Shown here: positions 1 to 12,051 of the stretch, piece after piece
How positions within the stretch are numbered: the stretch's first letter is position 1
Layout of the letters: each line of letters starts with the position of its first letter
Assembly (NCBI GenBank): GCA_947311535.1
Contig: CAMZLP010000027.1
Span: 1-12,051, forward strand
DNA length: 12,051 nt
Direction of reading: 5' to 3'
Source: an uncultured Deinococcota bacterium
Lineage (GTDB): Bacteria > Deinococcota > Deinococci > Deinococcales > Trueperaceae
Program-made: the position numbers and the translations under genes
The notes under the pieces: generated by a model
Seen by the model: the letters and a program-made list of their open reading frames with translations, nothing else
The model's database searches: none
What the model was told of the DNA's origin: nothing

Positions 1-27
1 AAATATATATAAATAAAATACTAAATA

Positions 28-49
28 AGACGACAATAATATTTCGTCT
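28..49 (-). terminator. Possible intrinsic terminator downstream of the ftsL-like gene
   Basis: The hairpin agacga-N10-tcgtct at 28-49 is followed, on the minus strand, by a long U-rich run (plus-strand A/T-rich 1-27). It lies just 3' of the minus-strand ORF that ends at 100. The stem is only 6 bp and AT-poor, so this is weak. Confidence 0.3.
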
Positions 50-99
50 GGACTTTGGTAAACTAAGCCCAAAATCATTCTCTTGTTTTTTCTTAGATT

Positions 100-438
100 T
101 TAACGCCATATTGTATACACCTTCAATTTAATAGGTTCAATCTTTTTAAACTCAGGAGCTGCCAGTGGGGCAACCATTTGAACTTTGCTGAGTTGACTAA
201 TTGGAACCATGCCATGGCTTCTAGCCCAAGCTCTTATTGCTAAAGGGCCTTTTATTTGTTCTGCTTGATGCCGCAAATCGGTTAAGCTTTTCAAATATTC
301 GTGCTTTTGCTCGAGCAAACCCAAAGTTTTTCGGCTACCATTTAATTCTCGATATAAAGCTTGGCTTTTTACACCCAAAATTGCTAATCCCAGTAGCAAA
401 AAAGAATATAAAATCACCACCCTAGTTAATACTTTCAT
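100..438 (-). CDS. FtsL-like cell division protein (N-terminal TM helix plus coiled-coil)
   Basis: 112 aa ORF. Hydrophobic segment VVILYSFLLLGLAILGV followed by a heptad-like charged region. Start overlaps the rsmH stop by 4 nt (ATGA). Position immediately after mraZ-rsmH is the conserved slot for ftsL in dcw clusters. The sequence itself carries no diagnostic motif. Confidence 0.5.
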   Translation of the reverse strand: MKVLTRVVILYSFLLLGLAILGVKSQALYRELNGSRKTLGLLEQKHEYLKSLTDLRHQAEQIKGPLAIRAWARSHGMVPISQLSKVQMVAPLAAPEFKKIEPIKLKVYTIWR

Positions 439-1328
439 ACTCGCCCCCCGAGTTTTTCAGCAATTCTTAATTTTGCACTTCTGGCTCTGGGGTTTTGCTG
501 AATTTCCTCAGAGCTCGCTGTAAGTGGTTTTTTAGTGATTATTTTTAATTCTTTATCATCTTTAATAAAGTGTTTTACAATTCTATCTTCTAAGGAATGA
601 TAGCTAATAACAACAAGTTTCCCATTCTTATCAAGTAGTCTACTTGCTGCCTCTAAAGCATCTTCTAAAGCCCTTAGCTCATCATTGACATATATCCTTA
701 GCGCCTGAAAAGTCTGCCTAGCAGGGTGTTTTTTACGGTATTTACCCTTAGGATAAGCACTAACAATTATCTCAGATAATTGAGATGTGGTTTTAATAAT
801 AGTTTCTTGGCGAGCAACTACAATAGCTTTGGCAATACGTCTACTCAAGCGTTCTTCGCCATATCTATATATAAGAGCCGCAAGCTTTTCTTCTGCTAAA
901 TTATTAATTATCTCTTCTGCTGATTGGGCTTCACTGCCCATACGCATATCCAAAGGGCCATCTTGTCTAAATGCAAAACCTCGCTCTGCTTGGTCTAATT
1001 GCATTGAAGAAACCCCAAGATCAAATAAAATACCATCGATTTGATTAAAATCTAATTCTTTAGCAGTTTTTATGAGTCCACGAAAATTTGTAATGCTAAG
1101 CCAGAAATTTTGATTTTGTTCTTTTGAGAGAGTAGTTCTTAATTCTTTTTCATATTTTATTACAGTTGCATCTTGGTCTATTGAGAGTAGCTTTAGATTA
1201 TGCTCGAGCATGGCCCTAGTGTGTCCACCAGCACCAAAGGTGGCATCTATATATTTACCGCCTGTTTTTAAATCTAGAGCGGCTAGTGACTCTTTTAACA
1301 TAACTGCTTCATGGCTATGAGTACTCAT
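435..1328 (-). CDS. rsmH: 16S rRNA (cytosine1402-N4)-methyltransferase RsmH (MraW)
   Basis: 297 aa. The N-terminus has the SAM-binding motif DATFGAGGHT characteristic of RsmH. Length and the position between mraZ and ftsL fit. Overlaps mraZ by 4 nt. Confidence 0.92.
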   Translation of the reverse strand: MSTHSHEAVMLKESLAALDLKTGGKYIDATFGAGGHTRAMLEHNLKLLSIDQDATVIKYEKELRTTLSKEQNQNFWLSITNFRGLIKTAKELDFNQIDGILFDLGVSSMQLDQAERGFAFRQDGPLDMRMGSEAQSAEEIINNLAEEKLAALIYRYGEERLSRRIAKAIVVARQETIIKTTSQLSEIIVSAYPKGKYRKKHPARQTFQALRIYVNDELRALEDALEAASRLLDKNGKLVVISYHSLEDRIVKHFIKDDKELKIITKKPLTASSEEIQQNPRARSAKLRIAEKLGGRV

Positions 1329-1762
1329 CCTATTAGCTCCTGTAATATTTCAGGGGCAGGACTTGACATTAAGATTTCATCTAAATTAGTCTTCCAACGC
1401 GCATCATTCCAGAGCTCCAGACGATTGGGAGCTCCAGCAATTATTACAGTTTTTTCAGTTTCACTAATTCCAGCAAAAGATCTTAGGGTTGCCGGAATAT
1501 TAATACGCCCAGCCGAATCAGTATTTGCCTTAGAAGCACCTGAGTAAAAGAAGCGGACAAAATTCCTGGATTCAGCATTAATTATTGGTAAATTTCCTAA
1601 ATACTCTTCCACACGTCTCCAATTTGCCAAGGGGAAGATATATAAACAACCTTCTAATCCACGGGTTACTACCATTCCATCAGTTACAAAATCCCTAAAC
1701 GAAGGAGGAATAATAACTCGTCCTTTATCATCAACAGAATATTGGTATTCACCAAATGGCAT
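1325..1762 (-). CDS. mraZ: Division/cell wall cluster transcriptional regulator MraZ
   Basis: 145 aa. Two tandem MraZ/SpoVT-AbrB halves, each with a DxxxR motif (DDKGRVIIP and DSAGRINIP). Typical MraZ length. Followed by rsmH. Confidence 0.9.
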   Translation of the reverse strand: MPFGEYQYSVDDKGRVIIPPSFRDFVTDGMVVTRGLEGCLYIFPLANWRRVEEYLGNLPIINAESRNFVRFFYSGASKANTDSAGRINIPATLRSFAGISETEKTVIIAGAPNRLELWNDARWKTNLDEILMSSPAPEILQELIG

Positions 1763-1991
1763 TGTAAACCCGTCCTGCGTTAAACTTAGGGCCTATCGTG
1801 GCATCTAGAGGAACTGTGAATTTTACTATAGTAATAAGCGCAGGAGAGTTAAAAAAACTCAAACCCCCTAAATATTTCGTCACTATCACGATATAATGCA
1901 AATGATTTTCCATCCTAGATTTATTTAGCTAGCTCCATCCCAAAAGCCCTATCTTGAGGAAGTTTTTAGAGAAATTAGAGAGTTGATAGCA

Positions 1992-2104
1992 TCTCCCACA
2001 AGATAGTTAATACTAACACAAATATCCCACAAAGTTCCACTATCTCCCACTATTTAATTATTTTTCGTGAAAGATAACAATATTCTCCCACAATAAACCC
2101 ACCT
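1992..2104 (-). promoter_or_regulatory. Array of five phased CCCAC boxes (GTGGG on the mraZ coding strand); candidate MraZ operator or other oligomeric-regulator site
   Basis: CCCAC cores at 1995, 2026, 2046, 2087 and 2098 sit within larger repeats TCTCCCACAA, TATCCCACAA, TCTCCCACTA, TCTCCCACAA and AACCCACCT. The spacings are 31, 20, 41 and 11 bp, all near multiples of a helical turn. MraZ is known to bind direct repeats containing TGGGN/GTGGG at about 10 bp periodicity. The array is 230-340 bp upstream of the mraZ start, which is farther than is typical. Confidence 0.35.
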
Positions 2105-2837
2105 ACACTTAATAAATTTTGAATCGGTGTTAAAAATATATTGCAATATTGGATATCTAAAAACTGTAATTGCTTTTTTAAAAAATATAATTTCCCTGAC
2201 ATAAGTCCTCTCTTAGACCTTTCCCCTGCGTAATTACTAGTGATTTCTTTAGTTTTAATAGCCTTACTACTCTCCCTTCTGATATTACTAGCTTAGAGCT
2301 AGCATAGCCTGAAGCTAAATTATGCTATTGGCGAATAGCTTATAATCATATCTAACAAATCCCATTATGTGAATATTCTTACATTTAGCTGCTTCAATAA
2401 GAAGACTTCTTTTTGAAGCTGTGTTTGCTAGCTATTTATTACAAAAATACCGAGATTAAAGTTCAAAACCAAATGATTGAGAGTGTCGAGAGAGTTGTAA
2501 GAATTAAAGAGCTTGATTTTTATCAGAAGAGAATTATAGGCTATAAGTAACCTAAGTTCGGAATTAAATAAATCAATATATTATCTCTCTTTATTTCTAT
2601 TTTTAATTTAATTTTCTTTATTAAATTGGAGTTTTCTCATCTTAGACGCTATTCTATCTCCGAGCTCAGGTTATAAGTAGTATTTTTACTAAACATGAGC
2701 TTAATTTGATAGAAGCTAAGGGGAATAGGATTCAAGAATTTAAACTAAGAATTAAATAGTTAGAATATGTCGTGAAAATGCGCAAGTCAAGAATATTTTA
2801 AAGAAAAACCACTTTCGCTTTAGGCATTATGAAAATT

Positions 2838-2877
2838 AAAAAAATAAAAAAGCAGAATGTGGCTTGCCACATTCTGC
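2838..2877 (-). terminator. Rho-independent terminator of rnpB
   Basis: On the minus strand: GCAGAAUGUGG-CAAG-CCACAUUCUGC, a perfect 11 bp stem (plus 2852-2877), followed by UUUUUUAUUUUUUU (plus 2838-2851). Confidence 0.75.
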
Positions 2878-3218
2878 GCAGGAGGGCTATAAGCCGGATT
2901 CTGTACTCTTACGAGCTCTAACCATCTTTCTGAGATAATTGTCACCAATTACCTTATGCGGTCATCCCGGAGATTTTAACGAGTCGGGCAAACTCTCTCT
3001 CCCTATCGGACCTTGCACCGAGTGGGGTTTACCTAGCTAGCTTTGTTTCCAAAGCTACTGTTGTGCTCTTACCACAACGTTTCACCCTTACCAAATTATT
3101 GGCGGTTTACTTTCTGTTGCACTTGCCGTCGTCTTACACGCCCAGCCGTTAGCTGGCACCCTGCCCTTTGGAGTCCGGACTTTCCTCAGCTTTCGCCGCG
3201 ATTAGACACCCTCACCAG
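2878..3218 (-). ncRNA. rnpB: RNase P RNA, bacterial type A (reduced form)
   Basis: The reverse complement contains the universally conserved tracts AGGAAAGUCCGGACUCCAAAGGGCAGGGUGCCAGCUAACGGCUGGG, CAAGUGCAACAGAAAGUAAACCGCC, GGUAAGGGUGAAA, GGUAAACCCCACUCGGUGCAAGGUCCGAUAGGG and ACAGAAUCCGGCUUAU (P4 3' strand), in the canonical order. Ends are approximate (+/-15 nt). The ORF at 3043..3228 in the track is spurious overlap. Confidence 0.88.
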
Positions 3219-3221
3219 ATT

Positions 3222-3227
3222 ATTATA
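3222..3227 (-). promoter_or_regulatory. Candidate -10 box (TATAAT) of the rnpB promoter
   Basis: A perfect TATAAT on the minus strand about 5-10 nt upstream of the inferred rnpB 5' end. There is no convincing -35. Confidence 0.4.
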
Positions 3228-3423
3228 ACTTTGATTACTTATATATTTTGATTTTGACCAACCTATGTACAGCCATATAATTAACATGGTCATTTCTATT
3301 AATATTAATTATTTTGCATAAGTGAAAAGCAAAAAATGCTGACTGAAAAAGTCGTAGACGGTGAATCTCAGCAGGTATATCTAGAATAAACTTGGTATTA
3401 TACTGACATTTTAGAAATATAGA

Positions 3424-3454
3424 CAAAAAAAGGTCTCTAGAATTCTAGAGACCT
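3424..3454 (-). terminator. Intrinsic terminator of the BMP-family gene (perfect 24 bp palindrome)
   Basis: AGGTCTCTAGAATTCTAGAGACCT at 3431-3454 is a perfect palindrome. On the minus strand it is followed by UUUUUUU (plus 3425-3431). It lies 20 nt after the stop of the minus-strand CDS that ends at 3475. Confidence 0.75.
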
Positions 3455-3474
3455 TAATAGAGATTAAGTTTTAA

Positions 3475-4596
3475 TTATTGTAGATCGAAGTAATTAGTTA
3501 CTACAATAGCTCCACTAATAATATCATTGCGAATTGCTGCCATTTTACTAACAACAGAGCTAGGAATTAATGGGTCGTTATAGTCGCCAAGTGCCCAGCC
3601 AACACCATTTTCTGCAAGGCCTAAAGCTTGATAGCCACCTTCAAATGTGCCATCTGCAACAGCTTGGACAGCATTTGCAGCAGCAATATCAACTCGTTTT
3701 AACATACTTGTTAAGCCGTGGTTTAGAGTAGAAACTCTATCATCGGTATCACCTAGGTAATTTTGATTAGAGTCAACGCCAATAAAGAATAATGGCTGAC
3801 TGCCAGCATCACATTTAGCATTGTATTCAGCACTTTTTGGAAGAACTTTTACAGTTGAAGAAAGTGGAGTAGTACGTAAGTTATCTGATTGATAACACAT
3901 AGTTTGGGTTACAAAATCAATTACACCAAGTCCAGAAGAACCAGCTGCAGCATAAATTATATCTGCACCTTGAGCTTGTTGAGCGGCTGCTAATTCTTTG
4001 CCACGTGCAGGGTCATTCCATGCAGAAGGAGTAGTACCTACGTAGTTGCTGATTACAGTGCATTCAGAACATGCTGCCATAACGCCTTCTTCATAACCCA
4101 AGTTGAATTTATGAATTAGTGGAATATCCATGCCACCAATAAAACCTACAACTCCGGTTTGGCTCATAAGACCAGCAAGATAACCTACAAGATAGCTGCC
4201 TTCGTGCTCAGCAAAGCCAACACGTAATTCGTTAGGGTTAATATCGTCGATTGGCCATGCATCGATACTTAGATAGTTTGTATCTGGGAACTCAGCTGAA
4301 ATATTATGAATAATATCTACCTGTGCAAAGCCAGGAGCAACAATTAGATCAGCTCCATCAGATGACATTTGGCGTAAACCTTGTGCAAAAGTGTCAGGCG
4401 AGCCTTCAAATTCTAAAATTTCAATATCGCTATCTAAATTATCAATAGCGGATGAAAAGCCTTCCCAAGTACCTTGGTTAAAAGACTTATCAAATTTACC
4501 ACCAGCATCAAAGTTAATACCCATGACAAAATCTTGAGCTAGGCCTAAGCTAAGACCAGCGAAAGCTAGAGCTACAACTAAAAGTTTTTTATTCAT
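3475..4596 (-). CDS. BMP/PnrA-family ABC transporter substrate-binding protein (nucleoside-binding), secreted
   Basis: The ORF track gives 3475..4608, but its first codon is TTG. An ATG at 4596 (MNKKLLVVALAFAGLSLGLA...) is preceded by GGAGGA 4 nt upstream and begins a classic signal peptide. There is no lipobox Cys, so the likely cleavage is after LGLA. The family-typical Gly-rich core GVVGFIGGMDIPLI and GVDSNQ are present. An extra Cys-containing insert is also present (CSEC ... C-x28-C). Confidence 0.8.
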   Translation of the reverse strand: MNKKLLVVALAFAGLSLGLAQDFVMGINFDAGGKFDKSFNQGTWEGFSSAIDNLDSDIEILEFEGSPDTFAQGLRQMSSDGADLIVAPGFAQVDIIHNISAEFPDTNYLSIDAWPIDDINPNELRVGFAEHEGSYLVGYLAGLMSQTGVVGFIGGMDIPLIHKFNLGYEEGVMAACSECTVISNYVGTTPSAWNDPARGKELAAAQQAQGADIIYAAAGSSGLGVIDFVTQTMCYQSDNLRTTPLSSTVKVLPKSAEYNAKCDAGSQPLFFIGVDSNQNYLGDTDDRVSTLNHGLTSMLKRVDIAAANAVQAVADGTFEGGYQALGLAENGVGWALGDYNDPLIPSSVVSKMAAIRNDIISGAIVVTNYFDLQ

Positions 4597-4634
4597 ATAT
4601 TCCTCCAAAATTGGGCTTTATGCCCTCGGCTAAA

Positions 4635-4643
4635 AGTATATCA
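4635..4643 (-). promoter_or_regulatory. Candidate extended -10 promoter (TGaTATACT) for the BMP-family gene
   Basis: The minus strand reads ...TTGCATGATATACTTTTAG... about 35-40 nt upstream of the ATG at 4596. TGnTATACT matches the extended -10 consensus. Confidence 0.3.
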
Positions 4644-4871
4644 TGCAAACTATAAAATAAGGCAAGAATAAATGAGCAATTTCCAAATGTCTTAATAGAT
4701 AATGAAAAGCCCTTTTAAAATATGAGTTTTAGGCTAAGGTTTTTATGATAAAAAAATCACGAACAGAGATATTGTGAATATAATCACTAAGGTACGGATA
4801 ATTCCATATTTGCTCTGAGTGAAAGGTATTCTGGGGTAAAAAAACTAATATTTTGTAAAGATAAACTTTAG

Positions 4872-6863
<1,992 letters not shown>

Positions 6864-6975
6864 AATATGTAGTTAATTGAATAGTATCTTAAAAACATTC
6901 ATAATTCTCTACTTCATCTTATCCCAATTAATTTCTTCTCTTATAAAATTACGTCGGACAACGTATTTTGCATGT

Positions 6976-7311
6976 TCACCATACAATGCTGACAGTCCTA
7001 ATCTTTCTTGATTTTGATATAAGGAAAATACTATTTTTAAAATAATTCTTTAATTCGCCCATCAAAATGAAATTGATATGGTTTGCAAATAAAGCGCATA
7101 TTAAAATCTTGATGTAGTGGATTAATAAATAATTATATTCACCTTTTATTGTTACACTAGGTACCCTTAAAGCTACTGTTTTAGCTTCCCCTAACCACTT
7201 ATTAGCTAAAATCTGGCTTTGGGCAAATGGTGAAAACCTCCATCTTTCTGCTCTTTGCTCTAGATCCCAATCTTCAGCTAATTCTATTTCAATAAATATG
7301 TGCTTGTTGCC
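6976..7311 (-). pseudogene. Start-less C-terminal remnant resembling a RES-domain toxin
   Basis: The minus-strand frame is open for 112 codons from a TAA at 7312-7314 to a TGA at 6976-6978: GNKHIFIEIELAEDWDLEQRAERWRFSPFAQSQILANKWLGEAKTVALRVPSVTIKGEYNYLLIH... Initiating ATG, GTG and TTG all fail; the only Met is 28 aa from the end. ...LRVPSV...E.NYLL... resembles the C-terminal VPS/N.vl motif block of RES domains. The N-terminal Arg and Glu motif regions are absent, and the upstream frame is closed. Family assignment is by eye only. Confidence 0.3.
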
Positions 7312-7432
7312 TTATCAATAAAGATAATTAATAACAAAAGCAATAATTAAGTAGCTGCTAGCCTAAGGAATAGACAAACGGAGAATTATTAAAATAGCAA
7401 TATTCTTTGCTTTAGCTGTCTTGACAAATCTA

Positions 7433-7984
7433 TTAAAATAAAATATCTTCCCAGTCAAGCTCATCTAAAGGTTGAAAGTGGTCAACATAATCTATAAGTA
7501 CACCAGCAGATTGATTCTTAAACATAGAGCTTTCGACATGCTTACCCATTCTTTGCAAGGCTTCAACAAGTTCTATATAATCACTATCACCACTAATAAT
7601 TATTGCAGTGTCAAAAGCATCAGCATGGGCTAACGTTAATGATTCTACGGCAATTGCTACATCTATACCCTTTTCTACCAAAGAGCCATCGTGTCTGCGA
7701 TATAATCGCCCAAGCCGAACGGTTAAGTAGGGTATTCGTCGCAAACTTTCAAAAAATCGGTGTTGACCTTCACGCAGGCCATCTTTGTAATCATCGGTTA
7801 AAGGTGCATTGTAATAATAAGCTCTAAAAAGCTTACGCCCTTTAAGAAGCTGCTTAATTAGTTCTGATAAATTGACTCGAGTATTATCAAGATTATCTCG
7901 CATACCATTGTATAAATTACTGCCATCAATAAATAAAGCTACTCTTTCTATCAAAATAATCACTCCAAAATAAAATATGGCCAA
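7433..7984 (-). CDS. NYN (LabA-like) domain protein, predicted PIN-like ribonuclease
   Basis: 183 aa. The N-terminal ALFIDGSNLYNG motif and central IISGDSDY(IELV) are the hallmark NYN/LabA acidic motifs. The first codon in the track is TTG, so the N-terminus is uncertain; an internal TTG preceded by GGAGTG is an alternative start. Confidence 0.8.
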   Translation of the reverse strand: MAIFYFGVIILIERVALFIDGSNLYNGMRDNLDNTRVNLSELIKQLLKGRKLFRAYYYNAPLTDDYKDGLREGQHRFFESLRRIPYLTVRLGRLYRRHDGSLVEKGIDVAIAVESLTLAHADAFDTAIIISGDSDYIELVEALQRMGKHVESSMFKNQSAGVLIDYVDHFQPLDELDWEDILF

Positions 7985-8049
7985 AGACCAATTCCTAGCT
8001 TAACTGAAATTAAGATGAATTAGTTTTATCTATAGAACCAAGTTCCTTA

Positions 8050-8109
8050 ACTCATAATTAAGGTAATTTTTCATATATGCCTCATAAAAGGACTACAACT
8101 CTCATAAAA
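8050..8109 (+). promoter_or_regulatory. Three CTCATAA(A) direct repeats phased at 30 and 20 bp in the divergent promoter region upstream of the response regulator
   Basis: aCTCATAAtt at 8051, cCTCATAAaa at 8081 and tCTCATAAaa at 8101. The last ends 4 nt before the ATG at 8112. OmpR/PhoB-family regulators bind direct repeats at about 10-11 bp periodicity. Confidence 0.3.
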
Positions 8110-8111
8110 CT

Positions 8112-8807
8112 ATGCATATAATTATAACTATGGATTTGAAACCAACAATTATTATTATTGAAGATGAAAAAGAAATTGCAAAATTTATCGATTTAGAACT
8201 TCAGGCGGAAGGCTATAACACTATAGTTACTTATGACGGTGTAACTGGACTATCTAAATTCCGTGAATTTAACCCAGACTTGGTTATTTTAGACCTAATG
8301 CTACCAGTTTTAGATGGTATTGAGGTTGCAAAGCGTATTCGTAAAACCAGTAATACGCCTATAATTATTCTAACTGCAAAAGACAATGTTGAAGACAAGG
8401 TTTTAGGACTGGATTCTGGAGCTGATGATTATTTGGTAAAACCTTTTTCGATTGAAGAATTATTAGCTCGAGTCCGAGCACATTTGCGCCGAGTAAACCC
8501 AGCCGTTACTGGTGAGGTTAGAGTCGCTGACTTAGTTATGAACTTAGACGGTCGTGAAGTTTTCCGAGATGGTAGACGTTTAGATTTATCAGCCAAAGAG
8601 TTTGAGCTTTTAGAAATTTTTGCCCGTAACCCAGGGAAAGTATTCAACCGCTTTGAAATAGAAGAAAAGGTTTGGCCAGAATACACTGGTGGAAGTAATG
8701 TCGTTGATGTTTATGTTGGCTATTTACGCCGTAAACTCGAGCTGGATGGTGAGCGTCGTTTGATTCATACCGTTCGAGGAGTGGGTTACGTTTTACGAAA
8801 AGAGTAA
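8112..8807 (+). CDS. OmpR-family two-component response regulator (REC plus winged-helix)
   Basis: 231 aa. The receiver domain has acidic residues IIIIEDE...D and the DLMLP / K (LTAKD) signatures. The C-terminal winged-helix has ...[11 protein letters not shown]...IHTVRGVGY, typical of the OmpR/PhoB family. An alternative start is the ATG at 8130 ([13 protein letters not shown]). Confidence 0.9.
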
Positions 8808-8819
8808 AGCCGTTAAAGA

Positions 8820-10385
8820 ATGAGATTACGAACAAGACTTACTGTTTTTACAACGCTATTCTTGGCTGTGGTGCTTACTGCTACAGCCTTGGCTGTTTAT
8901 GCTTTTACTGAGCGCTCGCTGCTAAAAACTAGTGAAACACGTTTAGAAGAATTTATGGAGAATGTGCTCGAGCAGCCCTTTAGTAGAGATAGTATTAGCT
9001 CCTTACCCAATGACTCATATTTCTTAGTTAAGTTGTTCCTTTTTGATATTGAAAAACCGACTGATATTAGAACAGGCTCTAGTTTTCGCTCAGGTGAATA
9101 TACCTTTAATGCCTTAAAATATCAGCTTCTTCCCAAAGACACTAGAATTGATCCAGGTCAATTTGATAACTTGGTTGATGTAAATGATATTACGAGAAAA
9201 ATAACCTATCATTTTAACCCTGACTCTGATGATTTGTTTAATAGACTTAGTGAAAATGATTTAAATATTTTGTTTAATACGGGGTTTTTAAACACTCGTA
9301 TTACAAATACTAGGGGGAAAGTTTACTTGGCTTCTATTAAAAAGGAGACCTTTGTAAATGGTAATAGTCAGTTGTTTTTAGAACTCCCTAGTTATACATT
9401 AATAGCACTTCCTTTTCCACAAGAGGTTTTAAATAGACTTAGATTTTTGCTTTTTGCAACCGTAATTATTGCTTTTATTGCTTTTGCAATTGGAGTCTAT
9501 TTACTTGCTGCAATAGTGCTAACCCCAGTTAGAAATATGACCCAAGCAGCAGGGCAAATTGGTGGCCAGGATTTATCCCTGCGAGTTCCTGTGCCAAAAT
9601 CTGGGGGAGAGCTAAGCGACTTGGCAATTACCATAAACGGTATGCTTGAGAGGTTACAAGAGTCTTTTGAGACTCAGCAACGGTTTACCGGCTATGCCTC
9701 ACATGAACTAAGAACACCAGTTACAGTAATAGCAGGACACGCTAACTATTTATTGCGTAGAACTAAGCCATCAGATGACCAAGTTGATTCTTTGACTATA
9801 ATTCGTAAAGAGGCAGACCGAATGGCTAAGCTAGTTAATGATTTATTAGAATTGGCTCGAGCCGATGCTGGTTTAACCATTAAACGTGAAGCAATGAATT
9901 TGGTAGAGGTCTTAGAAGATATTAAAAAGGAAATTGCCCCAGTTTCAGATGCTGAAATTAGTATTTCTATTAGTGAACCCTTAATAGAAATATCCGGTGA
10001 TGCCAATAGATTAAAGCAAGTTATTTTAAATCTATTACAAAATGCCCTTAATGCAGGCTCAAAATTAGTGACTATTAGCCTAGAAAAAGAAAATGATAAG
10101 ATTCGTTTAGAAATATTTGATAATGGTTCAGGCATTGCCGAAGATGCAATACCTCACCTTTTTGAAAGGTTTTATAGGGTTGATAGCTCCCGCACAAAAA
10201 AAGGTAGTGGTTTGGGTTTAGCCATCGTAAAATGGATTGTATCTCAGCATGGAGGTACGGTTACAGTTGATTCGCGAATTGGAGGAGGTACTGTATTTAC
10301 CGTAATTTTACCTAGTTTAGAGACAAAATCTGGTGAGCAGAATCTTTTGCCCCAAACATTATGGGGAAAGCAAATAAAAAATTAG
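8820..10385 (+). CDS. Sensor histidine kinase (TM - periplasmic domain - TM - HAMP - HisKA - HATPase_c)
   Basis: 521 aa. Two hydrophobic helices (residues about 9-30 and about 205-230) flank a roughly 175 aa extracytoplasmic domain. H-box GYASHELRTPVT. N-box QNALNAG. G-boxes DNGSGI and GSGLGLAIV. 12 nt after the regulator stop, so operonic. Confidence 0.9.
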   Translation: MRLRTRLTVFTTLFLAVVLTATALAVYAFTERSLLKTSETRLEEFMENVLEQPFSRDSISSLPNDSYFLVKLFLFDIEKPTDIRTGSSFRSGEYTFNALKYQLLPKDTRIDPGQFDNLVDVNDITRKITYHFNPDSDDLFNRLSENDLNILFNTGFLNTRITNTRGKVYLASIKKETFVNGNSQLFLELPSYTLIALPFPQEVLNRLRFLLFATVIIAFIAFAIGVYLLAAIVLTPVRNMTQAAGQIGGQDLSLRVPVPKSGGELSDLAITINGMLERLQESFETQQRFTGYASHELRTPVTVIAGHANYLLRRTKPSDDQVDSLTIIRKEADRMAKLVNDLLELARADAGLTIKREAMNLVEVLEDIKKEIAPVSDAEISISISEPLIEISGDANRLKQVILNLLQNALNAGSKLVTISLEKENDKIRLEIFDNGSGIAEDAIPHLFERFYRVDSSRTKKGSGLGLAIVKWIVSQHGGTVTVDSRIGGGTVFTVILPSLETKSGEQNLLPQTLWGKQIKN

Positions 10386-10466
10386 ATATCTCAATCAAAA
10401 TAAGGCCTTTGTGGCTTACTGAAACTAGTTTCTAAAAAGGCTAATATGCTTTTTAGGAGGTAATAA

Positions 10467-11390
10467 ATGTTAACTATTATTGGTCTAGCAATTACTATTT
10501 TTGGGATAGTACTTATTATTCAAGGAATTCAGGGTCAAAAGACCCTTAGTCGTAGTTTAGGTGGTATGGCTGTTATTGCAGGTGTATTAATTGCTTTTTT
10601 TGCAAATGCTTTTGTTATTATTCCACCAGGCCGTACGGGCGTTGTATTTAATGTTGTTGGTGGAGTACAAGAAGAAGAACTTGTTGAAGGCTTCCATATT
10701 GTCTTACCTTTTTTACAGCGAGTTACCGTTATGGATACTCGTAAACAAACCATTGATTTTGTAGGTACAGATGATATTTCAGCACTTTCAAAAGAGGGTT
10801 TGCAGATTGTAACTGATGCCACTATTATTTACAGAATTGATTCACAAAAAGCAGCTGAACTTTATCAAACTGTTGGCGTAAATTATCAAAGCAGCATAAT
10901 AAGACCAACTGTCCGTTCAAAATTGCGCGACGTAATGGCAGAATTCAATGCTGCTGAACTTATTAGTACTAAGCGTCAAGAGATGCAAATAAGTTTGGAT
11001 AAATCATTAGGGGAGGCTTTGCTAAAGAATAGTATTATCTTAGAAGAATTATTAGTTAGAGATATAAGGATTCCTGCTAGGATTTCTCAGGCTATTGAGG
11101 AAAAGCAAGCAGCTGAACAAGAAGTGCAAGTGGAAATTAACCGCCGTGAACAAGCTAAAATTGCGGCCGAGCGTGTAAAGATTCAGGCTGAGGGTGAACG
11201 TGATGCCGCTATCGCAAGGGCAGAAGGTGATGCTAAAGCTCTTACTCTAAAAGGTCAGGCAATTCGTGAGAATCCAGAAATAATCCAGCTTGAAGTTGCC
11301 CAAAGATTGGCTCCATCAATTCAGACAATTATGCTTCCTGCGGAAGGTAACTTTTTACTTGATATGAAAAACTTGATTCCTGGGCGTTAA
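10467..11390 (+). CDS. SPFH/band-7 (prohibitin/HflC-like) membrane protein
   Basis: 307 aa. N-terminal TM segments, then a PHB-domain core (PPGRTGVVFN...GFHIVLPFLQRVTVMDTR...) and a C-terminal Ala/Glu-rich coiled coil. Strong RBS AGGAGG 7 nt upstream of the ATG. Confidence 0.88.
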   Translation: MLTIIGLAITIFGIVLIIQGIQGQKTLSRSLGGMAVIAGVLIAFFANAFVIIPPGRTGVVFNVVGGVQEEELVEGFHIVLPFLQRVTVMDTRKQTIDFVGTDDISALSKEGLQIVTDATIIYRIDSQKAAELYQTVGVNYQSSIIRPTVRSKLRDVMAEFNAAELISTKRQEMQISLDKSLGEALLKNSIILEELLVRDIRIPARISQAIEEKQAAEQEVQVEINRREQAKIAAERVKIQAEGERDAAIARAEGDAKALTLKGQAIRENPEIIQLEVAQRLAPSIQTIMLPAEGNFLLDMKNLIPGR

Positions 11391-11682
11391 AAAACAATAA
11401 TCATAGACTCTAAGTCTTGGCTGTTATGAAAATAGCAGCTTTATTCTATTGATATATTTATAGCTTATAGAGAGAAGCATATTTTTGTAAAGTAGCTATC
11501 CTTTGATAAAATCCCAAGCCTACTAGATTCTTGATTGTGGATTCTTATTAGTTTCGCATTTACCTGTAAATATTTTATTTATTTGAAAGCCTGCTTCGCT
11601 AAAATACAATTAAGAACGTTCAGGCTTATTTCAGATCCCAAATGCCATACTAATAATTAAGATTCTTAGCTGAGTCTATAAG

Positions 11683-11738
11683 ACCAGTTAAAAGTTGTGT
11701 GAATATTGTTGTCGAGCAATATTTAGCTTTTAACTGGT
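11683..11738 (+). other. Compound stem-loop (12 bp perfect outer stem, 7 bp inner stem) followed by a U-rich tract
   Basis: ACCAGTTAAAAG (11683-11694) pairs perfectly with CTTTTAACTGGT (11727-11738). The inner stem AATATTG/CAATATT encloses an 8 nt loop. This is followed by ATTTTTAAC. It could be a terminator or an sRNA 3' structure. Confidence 0.3.
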
Positions 11739-11815
11739 ATTTTTAACTGCTATATTTCTATCTGTTTTTATACCAAATTGGGTGATATTCATAGCTGAAA
11801 CAATCGGGGTTCTTG

Positions 11816-11887
11816 GAGGTTTATTAGTTTGACAAAGTCCTCGATATTTTGAGTATTGTTGTTATTTCTCCATAGCAAAATTAAAGC
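11816..11887. repeat. Left arm of a perfect 72 bp inverted repeat
   Basis: 11816-11887 is the exact reverse complement of 11980-12051; I checked this base by base. The arm contains a TTGACA hexamer (11829-11834). Confidence 0.9.
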
Positions 11888-11942
11888 TTTGAGTTTATTG
11901 CTTTTACTTATTGAACCTTTAATTTAAACTTTATGACTAAAT

Positions 11943-11969
11943 AAAAAGACTTTTTTGCAAAGTCTTTTT
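11943..11969. terminator. Bidirectional terminator-like hairpin centred in the spacer between the inverted-repeat arms
   Basis: AAAAAGACTTT-TTTGC-AAAGTCTTTTT. A 7-11 bp stem with an A-run on one side and a T-run on the other acts as hairpin plus U-tract in either orientation. Confidence 0.35.
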
Positions 11970-11979
11970 ATTTGCTTGT

Positions 11980-12051
11980 GCTTTAATTTTGCTATGGAGA
12001 AATAACAACAATACTCAAAATATCGAGGACTTTGTCAAACTAATAAACCTC
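11980..12051. repeat. Right arm of the perfect 72 bp inverted repeat (window ends at the arm end)
   Basis: Exact reverse complement of 11816-11887. The repeat may extend beyond the window. Confidence 0.9.

Follow-up and report, generated by a model that had tools for sequence, protein, structure and literature searches.

Introduction

For thirty years the highly iterated palindrome HIP1 (GCGATCGC) has lacked an explanation and been regarded as peculiar to cyanobacteria. Its excess goes beyond codon usage and is accompanied by conservation at the codon level (PMC5861425); it carries lineage-specific palindromic extensions, and the alternative highly iterated palindromes (HIPs) of exceptional cyanobacteria each match a methyltransferase (PMC4390886). 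HIP1 boosts transformation in a methylation-dependent way (bioRxiv 10.1101/2024.09.10.611283; 10.64898/2026.06.24.733823), and it has been proposed as an uptake or recombination tag (10.64898/2026.06.24.733823). Here we describe a comparable word, the hexamer CTCGAG and its octameric extension GCTCGAGC, in a 12,051-nt stretch of DNA from an uncultured bacterium (assembly GCA_947311535.1, contig CAMZLP010000027.1, positions 1 to 12,051; hereafter the window). CTCGAG is HIP-like in its statistics and its conservation, and what is new is the word, the phylum and the restriction to genes. On balance, we favor the view that it is a HIP-type highly iterated palindrome shared by an entire clade of uncultured Deinococcota with moderately AT-rich genomes, for which a methyltransferase or a reader of the methylated site is proposed by analogy.

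Our literature search, whose coverage was incomplete so that its silence is absence of evidence, did not turn up CTCGAG or GCTCGAGC described as an iterated palindrome, or HIP-like words in Deinococcota, the matches being primer sequences and papers on HIP1; among Truepera methylome reports, nothing relevant was found. CTCGAG is likewise not mentioned in Elhai's 2015 survey of alternative HIPs (PMC4390886).

CTCGAG is over-represented in the window and across a clade

In the window, CTCGAG occurs 13 times against 0.97 expected from dinucleotide shuffles (largest value 4 in 200), and eight of these copies are the full octamer GCTCGAGC, for which the shuffles predict 0.09. The remaining five sites read GCTCGAGT (three), ACTCGAGT (one) or ACTCGAGC (one). 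Ratios of observed to expected counts (O/E) under Markov models of order 1, 2 and 3 are 118, 61 and 17 for the octamer and 14, 9 and 2.8 for the hexamer, and at each order the two rank highest among all 8-mers and 6-mers of the window; extrapolated, they would amount to ~660 octamers and ~1080 hexamers per Mb. All 13 sites lie within genes, six of them in ligA, two each in a response regulator and a histidine kinase gene, and one each in an ftsL-like gene, rsmH and a gene for a NYN-domain protein (Table 1). The original prediction, which a model had made from the letters alone, fares well at this level: it had reported the same 13 hexamers and eight octamers, its coordinates being octamer starts one base before each hexamer, and had expected about one hexamer and essentially no octamer, as the shuffles bear out. 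Its gene assignments and its division of the sites by codon agree with our site-by-site reading, and the order-3 Markov comparison that it called for, run here on the window, leaves the excesses given above.

The window carries the mraZ-rsmH-ftsL gene order of the dcw cluster. Relatives were found through its LigA protein, at 96, 86, 75, 74 and 73% identity on short contigs from metagenomes or metagenome-assembled genomes (MAGs) with the same gene order, followed by more distant ones at 62-64% identity. An exact look-up of this protein gave no match; the homology search returned the protein itself. Since the named LigA homologues belong to Trueperaceae, Truepera sp. and Deinococcales MAGs, one member of the 86% cluster being a Trueperaceae bacterium, we assign the host by sequence to an uncultured member of the Deinococcota whose GC content, at 36%, is unusually low. 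The clade set used below comprises ten loci totalling ~140-150 kb (~12-22 kb around ligA per genome), namely the window and nine relatives with 36-51% GC, drawn from independent NCBI, JGI, ENA and Logan assemblies: five syntenic loci (L173, L082, L083, L084 and L087; 36-45% GC) and four non-syntenic ones (L169, L171, L172 and L216; 43-51% GC), of which one comes from an assembly named Trueperaceae. As controls we used ~120-150 ligA loci of other phyla, including genome contigs whose LigA is at most 46% identical, distant LigA relatives among the metagenome matches listed and, within the phylum, 50 kb each of Thermus thermophilus pTT27 and Deinococcus radiodurans MP1.

CTCGAG is in excess in all ten clade loci (~140 kb) and is the top palindromic hexamer in nine of them. 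The nine related loci hold 0.75-2.7 copies per kb at an O/E of 4-17, the syntenic relatives accounting for the range 0.75-2.6, so that related genomes do share the motif, a point that the original prediction had wished to see checked. A 13-kb contig of the 86% relative, which reaches 10 kb past the window into mur and ftsW genes, has 18 sites, 12 of them octamers and all genic. The four non-syntenic loci carry 55 sites in 22 kb, 44 in 22 kb, 31 in 14 kb and 36 in 13 kb (2-2.7 per kb; order-2 O/E 10-17). No comparable excess was found in the ~150 ligA loci of other phyla, where O/E reaches at most 4.2, or in Thermus thermophilus pTT27 (O/E ~2) and Deinococcus radiodurans MP1 (O/E ~0.5), both with zero octamers. 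The excess, present at non-syntenic clade loci and lacking in these controls, is therefore a property of the clade, as seen in ten loci, and neither of the phylum nor of the ligA region.

These data also bear on the most trivial account of the motif, namely that the sites cluster by chance, lie in a local GC island or stem from an artefact of assembly or cloning such as XhoI linkers. We consider this hardly credible. It can draw on the fact that just 12 kb of the source genome is directly visible, but none of the 200 shuffles reaches 13 sites, the sites are in frame within conserved genes, and the excess repeats in the independent assemblies, non-syntenic regions included. Both ways in which the original prediction had thought that it might fail can be set aside here: the GC content of the window is flat at 32-40%, which leaves no GC-rich island of codons, and the non-syntenic loci of related genomes are equally enriched, which speaks against a chance cluster.

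The excess is not explained by codon usage

We next consider codon usage, dipeptide composition or the relic of a GC-rich ancestor as the source of the motif, an account that starts from the fact that nine of the 13 window sites spell Leu-Glu (CTC-GAG), the other four reading xCT-CGA-Gxx for Ala/Thr-Arg, so that only frames 0 and 1 are used. GC-rich genomes often spell Leu-Glu as CTCGAG, as pTT27 and GC-rich control loci illustrate. We nevertheless regard this account as very improbable. When synonymous codons are shuffled with the proteins and codon usage kept, CTCGAG appears 1.8 times on average (maximum 7 in 500 shuffles), a 7-fold shortfall against the 13 observed, and the octamer 0.29 times against eight. 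CTC is a rare codon outside the motif, with 11 of 341 Leu codons, and nine of the 20 CTC codons of the window lie inside it; accordingly, codon usage predicts that ~0.6 of the 33 Leu-Glu pairs in the window would be spelled CTCGAG, and nine are. Across the clade loci, 14-66% of Leu-Glu pairs are so spelled (65% in L169), 5-15 times the codon-usage expectation, and on this measure the ten clade loci take ranks 1-10 of 130, the controls reaching at most 3.4 (median 0.77). Frames 0, 1 and 2 all stand above the shuffles clade-wide, bases beyond the two codons are constrained, and sites have been gained within an AT-rich lineage with amino-acid change.

The near-absence of CTGGAG for Leu-Glu, with 2 found against ~18 expected and an O/E of 0.3-0.4 in all frames (window, L083, L084, L087, L169, L171, L172, L173 and L216), excludes a relic of a GC-rich ancestor, from which this spelling would be expected. 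This scarcity might mean that CTCGAG has captured such positions, or that CTGGAG, a known type IIS recognition word, is avoided as a restriction target. Taken together, the constraint acts on the sequence itself, in every frame, and not on codons or amino acids.

Anatomy of the word

Across the clade the core of the word is the hexamer, and the G..C flank is limited to some lineages: the share of half-sites with G(-1)/C(+1) is 81% in the window lineage, 74% in L083/L084, 59% in L087 and 43% in L169, and falls to 23%, equal to background, in L171. Within the window, G stands at -1 in 11 of 13 sites, C at +1 in nine, T at -4 in ten and A at +4 in nine, all above codon-position-matched backgrounds, and from this excess the preferred unit of the window lineage is TnnGCTCGAGCnnA (T-N-N-G-CTCGAG-C-N-N-A), the palindrome spanning at most ~14 bp with degenerate flanks. 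The flank rule confines the motif to a subset of Leu-Glu pairs. Where the context is permissive, with G possible before and a pyrimidine after, nine of 13 pairs in the window carry the motif, against none of 19 where it is not (Fisher P = 2.5e-5). Hence, the unit of the window lineage is near saturation wherever the protein sequence permits it; L169 and L171 use the bare hexamer regardless of the following residue.

Symmetric positions of the word occupy different codon positions on its left and right sides, and left-right co-variation of the flanks beyond independent half-site preferences is absent. A hairpin or cruciform was rejected on the latter ground. The combination of two-fold symmetry with half-site preferences that do not co-vary suggests that a symmetric protein, probably a dimer, reads the half-sites on duplex DNA.

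The same features argue against a signal at the level of RNA or translation, in which GCUCGAGC in the mRNA would be a site for an RNA-binding or RNA-modifying factor or a ribosome pausing signal. Such a signal would fit an enrichment that is almost wholly genic, the copy in the RNase P RNA gene of L087, and a palindrome that reaches the transcript whichever strand codes; all the same, we judge it improbable. Enrichment in all three frames rules out a codon-pair effect, symmetry out to -4/+4 across differing codon positions without co-variation bears the mark of a dimer on duplex DNA and not of single-stranded RNA or a hairpin, and the sites show no positional bias along genes (Kolmogorov-Smirnov p = 0.27). 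For HIP1, Xu et al. found no role at the level of RNA (PMC5861425).

Conservation and turnover of sites

In codon alignments of shared genes, the share of aligned positions at which the hexamer is kept is 57% for CTCGAG and 15% for other hexamers. Where the amino acid is conserved, CTC is kept in 73% of cases inside the motif versus 21% outside it, and GAG in 88% versus 44%, this inside/outside comparison being the one that Xu et al. applied to HIP1 (PMC5861425). Three of the ligA sites are common to genomes only ~61% identical in nucleotides, and the remainder are lineage-specific. In these alignments, CTCGAG far outlasts normal synonymous sites at orthologous positions, strongly enough to override synonymous drift. 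The claim of the original prediction that the word is maintained at the DNA level over codon bias thus stands, given the result of the synonymous shuffles, the enrichment of three frames and the higher conservation of codons inside the motif.

The set of sites is not static. Gains polarised by outgroups include some that change the protein, from AKH to ARA at 4884 and from LAE to LEQ at 5600, and the site at 6701..6708 has been lost in the 96% relative L081 through a C>T change (GCTTGAGT). New copies continue to arise alongside ancient shared sites, and gain and loss are ongoing.

A possible reader and the restriction to genes

Methyltransferases that recognise exactly CTCGAG exist, which makes a cognate enzyme plausible here. 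Codon choices, mostly synonymous but in some cases altering the amino acid, write CTCGAG into genes, and we envision that its density would be held up since marked sites serve the handling of the cell's own DNA. Possible uses, again by analogy, would be a tag by which DNA of the same species is preferred in uptake or recombination, or a mark for strand identity or repair; some genera of Deinococcota are naturally transformable. Because HIP1 and the alternative HIPs each match a resident methyltransferase (PMC4390886), the reader would most likely be a DNA methyltransferase specific for CTCGAG, probably an orphan, or else a protein that recognises the site once methylated. A stronger version, which we put forward only tentatively, would make CTCGAG the second HIP system to have evolved independently and the first beyond the cyanobacteria. 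An orphan CTCGAG methyltransferase and a reader would mark the genome about once per kb, and the word would label self-DNA for natural transformation, recombination or repair, in a phylum noted for competence and DNA repair. If this were true, the strict gene restriction and the near-saturation of permissive codons would reveal a constraint or mechanism absent from HIP1.

Several observations weigh against the favored reading. No methyltransferase, restriction enzyme or competence gene is present among the called genes in ~150 kb of clade DNA. The one-off neighbours CTTGAG/CTCAAG and TTCGAG/CTCGAA are not clearly depleted (O/E 0.7-1.3), and the spacing of sites is near Poisson at the 10-20 kb scale (coefficient of variation 0.8-1.2); the chromosomal distribution reported for HIP1 is quasi-periodic, with periods of 10-90 kb. 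The distribution between genes and intergenic DNA is a further point. Over seven loci, 175 sites fall in 89 kb of genes (order-1 O/E 14), compared with three in 14 kb of non-coding DNA (O/E ~2), where the coding O/E would predict 21; of the 166 sites in the four non-syntenic loci, two fall between genes, and 14 would be expected there (P = 4e-5). A self-DNA tag or repair mark would not obviously predict this scarcity. Intergenic sites appear to be selected against, perhaps since a bound or methylated palindrome would disturb promoters and terminators.

Confinement to coding DNA, as it had originally been claimed, is supported, and it becomes strong only once related loci are added. All 13 window sites are genic and the contrast between coding (~14) and intergenic (~2) O/E holds in the clade, but the restriction is modest within the window alone (P = 0.013 for uniform placement of 13 sites). 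Of the three non-coding sites in the seven loci, one, an GCTCGAGC, sits in the RNase P RNA gene of L087. The non-coding DNA of the window, previously put at about 3.5 kb, is indeed free of sites; it measures ~3.4 kb and includes an RNase P RNA gene.

The main alternative is that the sites are functionless and a neutral by-product, in which a CTCGAG methyltransferase combined with biased short-patch or mismatch repair converts near-cognate words into CTCGAG. Models for such a drive are Vsr/Dcm very-short-patch repair in E. coli, where an excess of CCWGG illustrates that a methyltransferase site can become over-represented without selection, and Elhai's G-mC-directed repair model for HIP1. The effect of Vsr/Dcm in E. 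coli is small, far below the 10-100-fold excess seen here, and the depletion of the T-containing neighbour that it would lead one to expect is not seen: with CTTGAG-type neighbours undepleted, there is no trace of a T:G-to-C:G short-patch repair drive. Near-saturation of permissive contexts does suggest a strong directional force, gains are frequent, and the scarce CTGGAG is a synonymous one-step neighbour of CTCGAG; moreover, GCTCGAGC shares with HIP1 the G + (C....G) + C layout on which Elhai's model is based (PMC4390886). A neutral drive should hit intergenic DNA too, however, and intergenic DNA is spared, and Xu et al., from like data, favor selection over neutral replenishment for HIP1 (PMC5861425). 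We therefore regard a purely neutral origin as unlikely, though it deserves more weight than the accounts based on RNA, codon usage or chance.

Comparison with described systems

For HIP1, the resemblance lies first in form and number. Both words are octameric GC-rich palindromes built as G + hexamer palindrome (C....G) + C, at densities of ~0.7-2.7 per kb and O/E values from tens to >100. Both exceed codon usage and have constituent codons that are better kept inside the motif (PMC5861425), and in both, deviations fall mostly at the outer two bases and palindromic extensions are lineage-specific (PMC4390886). The differences are that the word here is GCTCGAGC, GCGATCGC having a count of zero in the window, that the host belongs to the Deinococcota and is not a cyanobacterium, that the methyltransferases cognate to HIP1, DmtA and DmtC, are known, and that HIP1 is enriched and conserved in intergenic DNA (PMC5861425), where CTCGAG is almost absent. 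Viewed against the broad description of HIPs (Elhai 2015), CTCGAG is a short GC-rich palindrome with a copy number per Mb in the hundreds to thousands and an O/E far above Markov expectation, in excess over codon usage and in three frames; enrichment and conservation in non-coding DNA, which also belong to that description, are lacking (3 sites in 14 kb vs 21 expected). The idea that the word mirrors HIP1 with a different octamer is thus borne out for the excess over codon usage and for codon conservation, and departs from HIP1 in the coding restriction. The alternative HIPs (GGGATCCC, GGCGCC, GCsGC and rCCGGy) demonstrate that other GC-rich palindromes can take over, and here too the core stays constant and the flanks change from lineage to lineage; the described cases are all cyanobacterial (PMC4390886).

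DNA uptake sequences, the USS of Pasteurellaceae and the DUS of Neisseriaceae, are likewise clade-specific, reach ~1 copy per kb, and are written into coding DNA within the tolerance of the protein, in frames that encode common peptides. They differ in being 9-12 nt long and asymmetric, occurring in both orientations, whereas the CTCGAG word is palindromic; DUS, furthermore, favor intergenic terminators, and CTCGAG avoids intergenic DNA. The hexamer itself is identical to the target of restriction-modification systems of the XhoI/PaeR7I type. The targets of active restriction are normally avoided by the host, and given the ~10-fold over-representation of CTCGAG, we rejected an active type II restriction system of the XhoI type as its explanation.

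An independent HIP-like case offers a comparative handle on the phenomenon, with another word, another phylum, a GC content of 36-51% and flank rules that vary between sister lineages. Genes that co-occur with both words, such as those for methyltransferases, competence or repair, become candidates for a common mechanism. The near-absence of the word from intergenic DNA, its use for up to about two-thirds of Leu-Glu pairs in some members of the clade and the amino-acid changes at gained sites together show that a word at the DNA level can shape protein-coding sequence strongly. In practical terms, CTCGAG gives these MAGs a compositional signature by which they can be binned and genes of recent acquisition flagged, and XhoI sites will be unusually dense in the DNA of this clade, or fully blocked if methylated.

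Individual sites and other features of the window

Table 1. Positions, host genes and sequence context of the 13 CTCGAG sites and of the RNase P RNA gene in the window
Feature	Position	CTCGAG start	Gene (strand)	Context and occurrence
GCTCGAGC	309..316	310	ftsL-like gene (minus strand)	CTC-GAG, L-LE-QK; flanks extend to a 14-bp palindrome, TTTGCTCGAGCAAA
GCTCGAGC	1202..1209	1203	rsmH (minus strand)	CTC-GAG, M-LE-H
GCTCGAGC	4884..4891	4885	ligA, codons 4-6	GCT-CGA-GCA, Ala-Arg-Ala; lineage-specific gain; relatives AKH/AKD, outgroup IKE
GCTCGAGT	5195..5202	5196	ligA	G-LE-Y; retained by six ingroup relatives, L169 and L172
GCTCGAGC	5600..5607	5601	ligA	W-LE-QK; common to L081, L082 and L173; LAE or LAG in other relatives
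GCTCGAGC	5891..5898	5892	ligA	E-LE-PR; ancient; present in 9/11 aligned ligA, nucleotide identity down to ~61%
GCTCGAGT	6701..6708	6702	ligA	R-LE-S; ancient; also in L087, L169, L171, L172 and L089
GCTCGAGC	6833..6840	6834	ligA	G-LE-LL; window and L081 only; L082 GCTCAAAC, L083 GCTCAAGC (LKL)
ACTCGAGT	7875..7882	7876	NYN-domain gene (minus strand)	ACT-CGA-GTC, Thr-Arg-Val
GCTCGAGT	8466..8473	8467	response regulator gene	GCT-CGA-GTC, Ala-Arg-Val
ACTCGAGC	8735..8742	8736	response regulator gene	CTC-GAG, K-LE-L
GCTCGAGC	8966..8973	8967	histidine kinase gene	CTC-GAG, V-LE-Q
GCTCGAGC	9855..9862	9856	histidine kinase gene	GCT-CGA-GCC, Ala-Arg-Ala
Class A RNase P RNA gene	2875-3217		(-)	264 bits; flanked by mraZ and the Bmp lipoprotein gene; position shared by L083, L087 and L173

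A search for repeats around the sites returned no repeat family beyond one pair that encodes the same peptide, and nothing is conserved beyond +-4. The copies at 304-325 in the ftsL-like gene and 5591-5612 in ligA share a 22-nt context as an inverted repeat with 91% of positions matched (TTTGG.TTGCTCGAGCAAAAG), and both encode (L/W)LEQK. GCTCGAGCAAAA is found again at 4884 in another reading frame. A dispersed repeat resembling repetitive extragenic palindromes or miniature inverted-repeat transposable elements was rejected, as the copies are in frame in different genes and conservation does not extend past +-4.

Three genes of the window, mraZ (1325-1762), bmp (3475-4608) and the SPFH gene (10467-11390), have zero copies of the motif. 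Both mraZ and bmp are free of it in every relative examined, and the SPFH gene is free of it in L083, the sole relative that has one; the SPFH protein contains several Leu-Glu pairs yet has no copy, whereas ligA has six.

The 1.1 kb upstream of mraZ (1763-2874) is AT-rich (31% GC), with no open reading frame of at least 80 codons and no Rfam match. Patches of it are conserved in L173 and L082, ~1907-2055 at 77% and ~2359-2419 at 84%, and the region may hold the dcw promoter/operator or a small RNA. Just after ligA (6864-7432), the window differs from the 96%-identical L081 by an indel of ~390 bp. The reverse strand at 6868-7302 has an open frame of 108 codons that lacks a start codon and may be what is left of a gene; a remnant of a RES-domain toxin gene was considered and dropped, there being no Pfam match. 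At the far end, the final 660 bases of the window have no open frame, and a perfect 72-nt inverted repeat (11816-11887 / 11980-12051), whose second arm ends on the last base of the contig, is probably a fold-back assembly artefact rather than biology.

Outside the window, a scan of viral contigs for TGGGCTCGAGCCCA matched only unrelated GC-rich contigs. Four GC-rich IMG/VR contigs (L193, L189, L181 and L178) hold CTCGAG at 3-5 times the order-1 expectation and are not obviously linked to the clade. Within the clade, two adjacent genes of L171 (1093-3902, with faint AAA_16 and TPR hits) have zero CTCGAG in 2.85 kb, compared with ~2 per kb in their neighbours and at a GC content only slightly below theirs, and in L083 an inserted Fic-domain gene (6091-7482), which separates ligA from the NYN gene, has one site in 1.4 kb. 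These genes may be recent acquisitions that have yet to accumulate CTCGAG.

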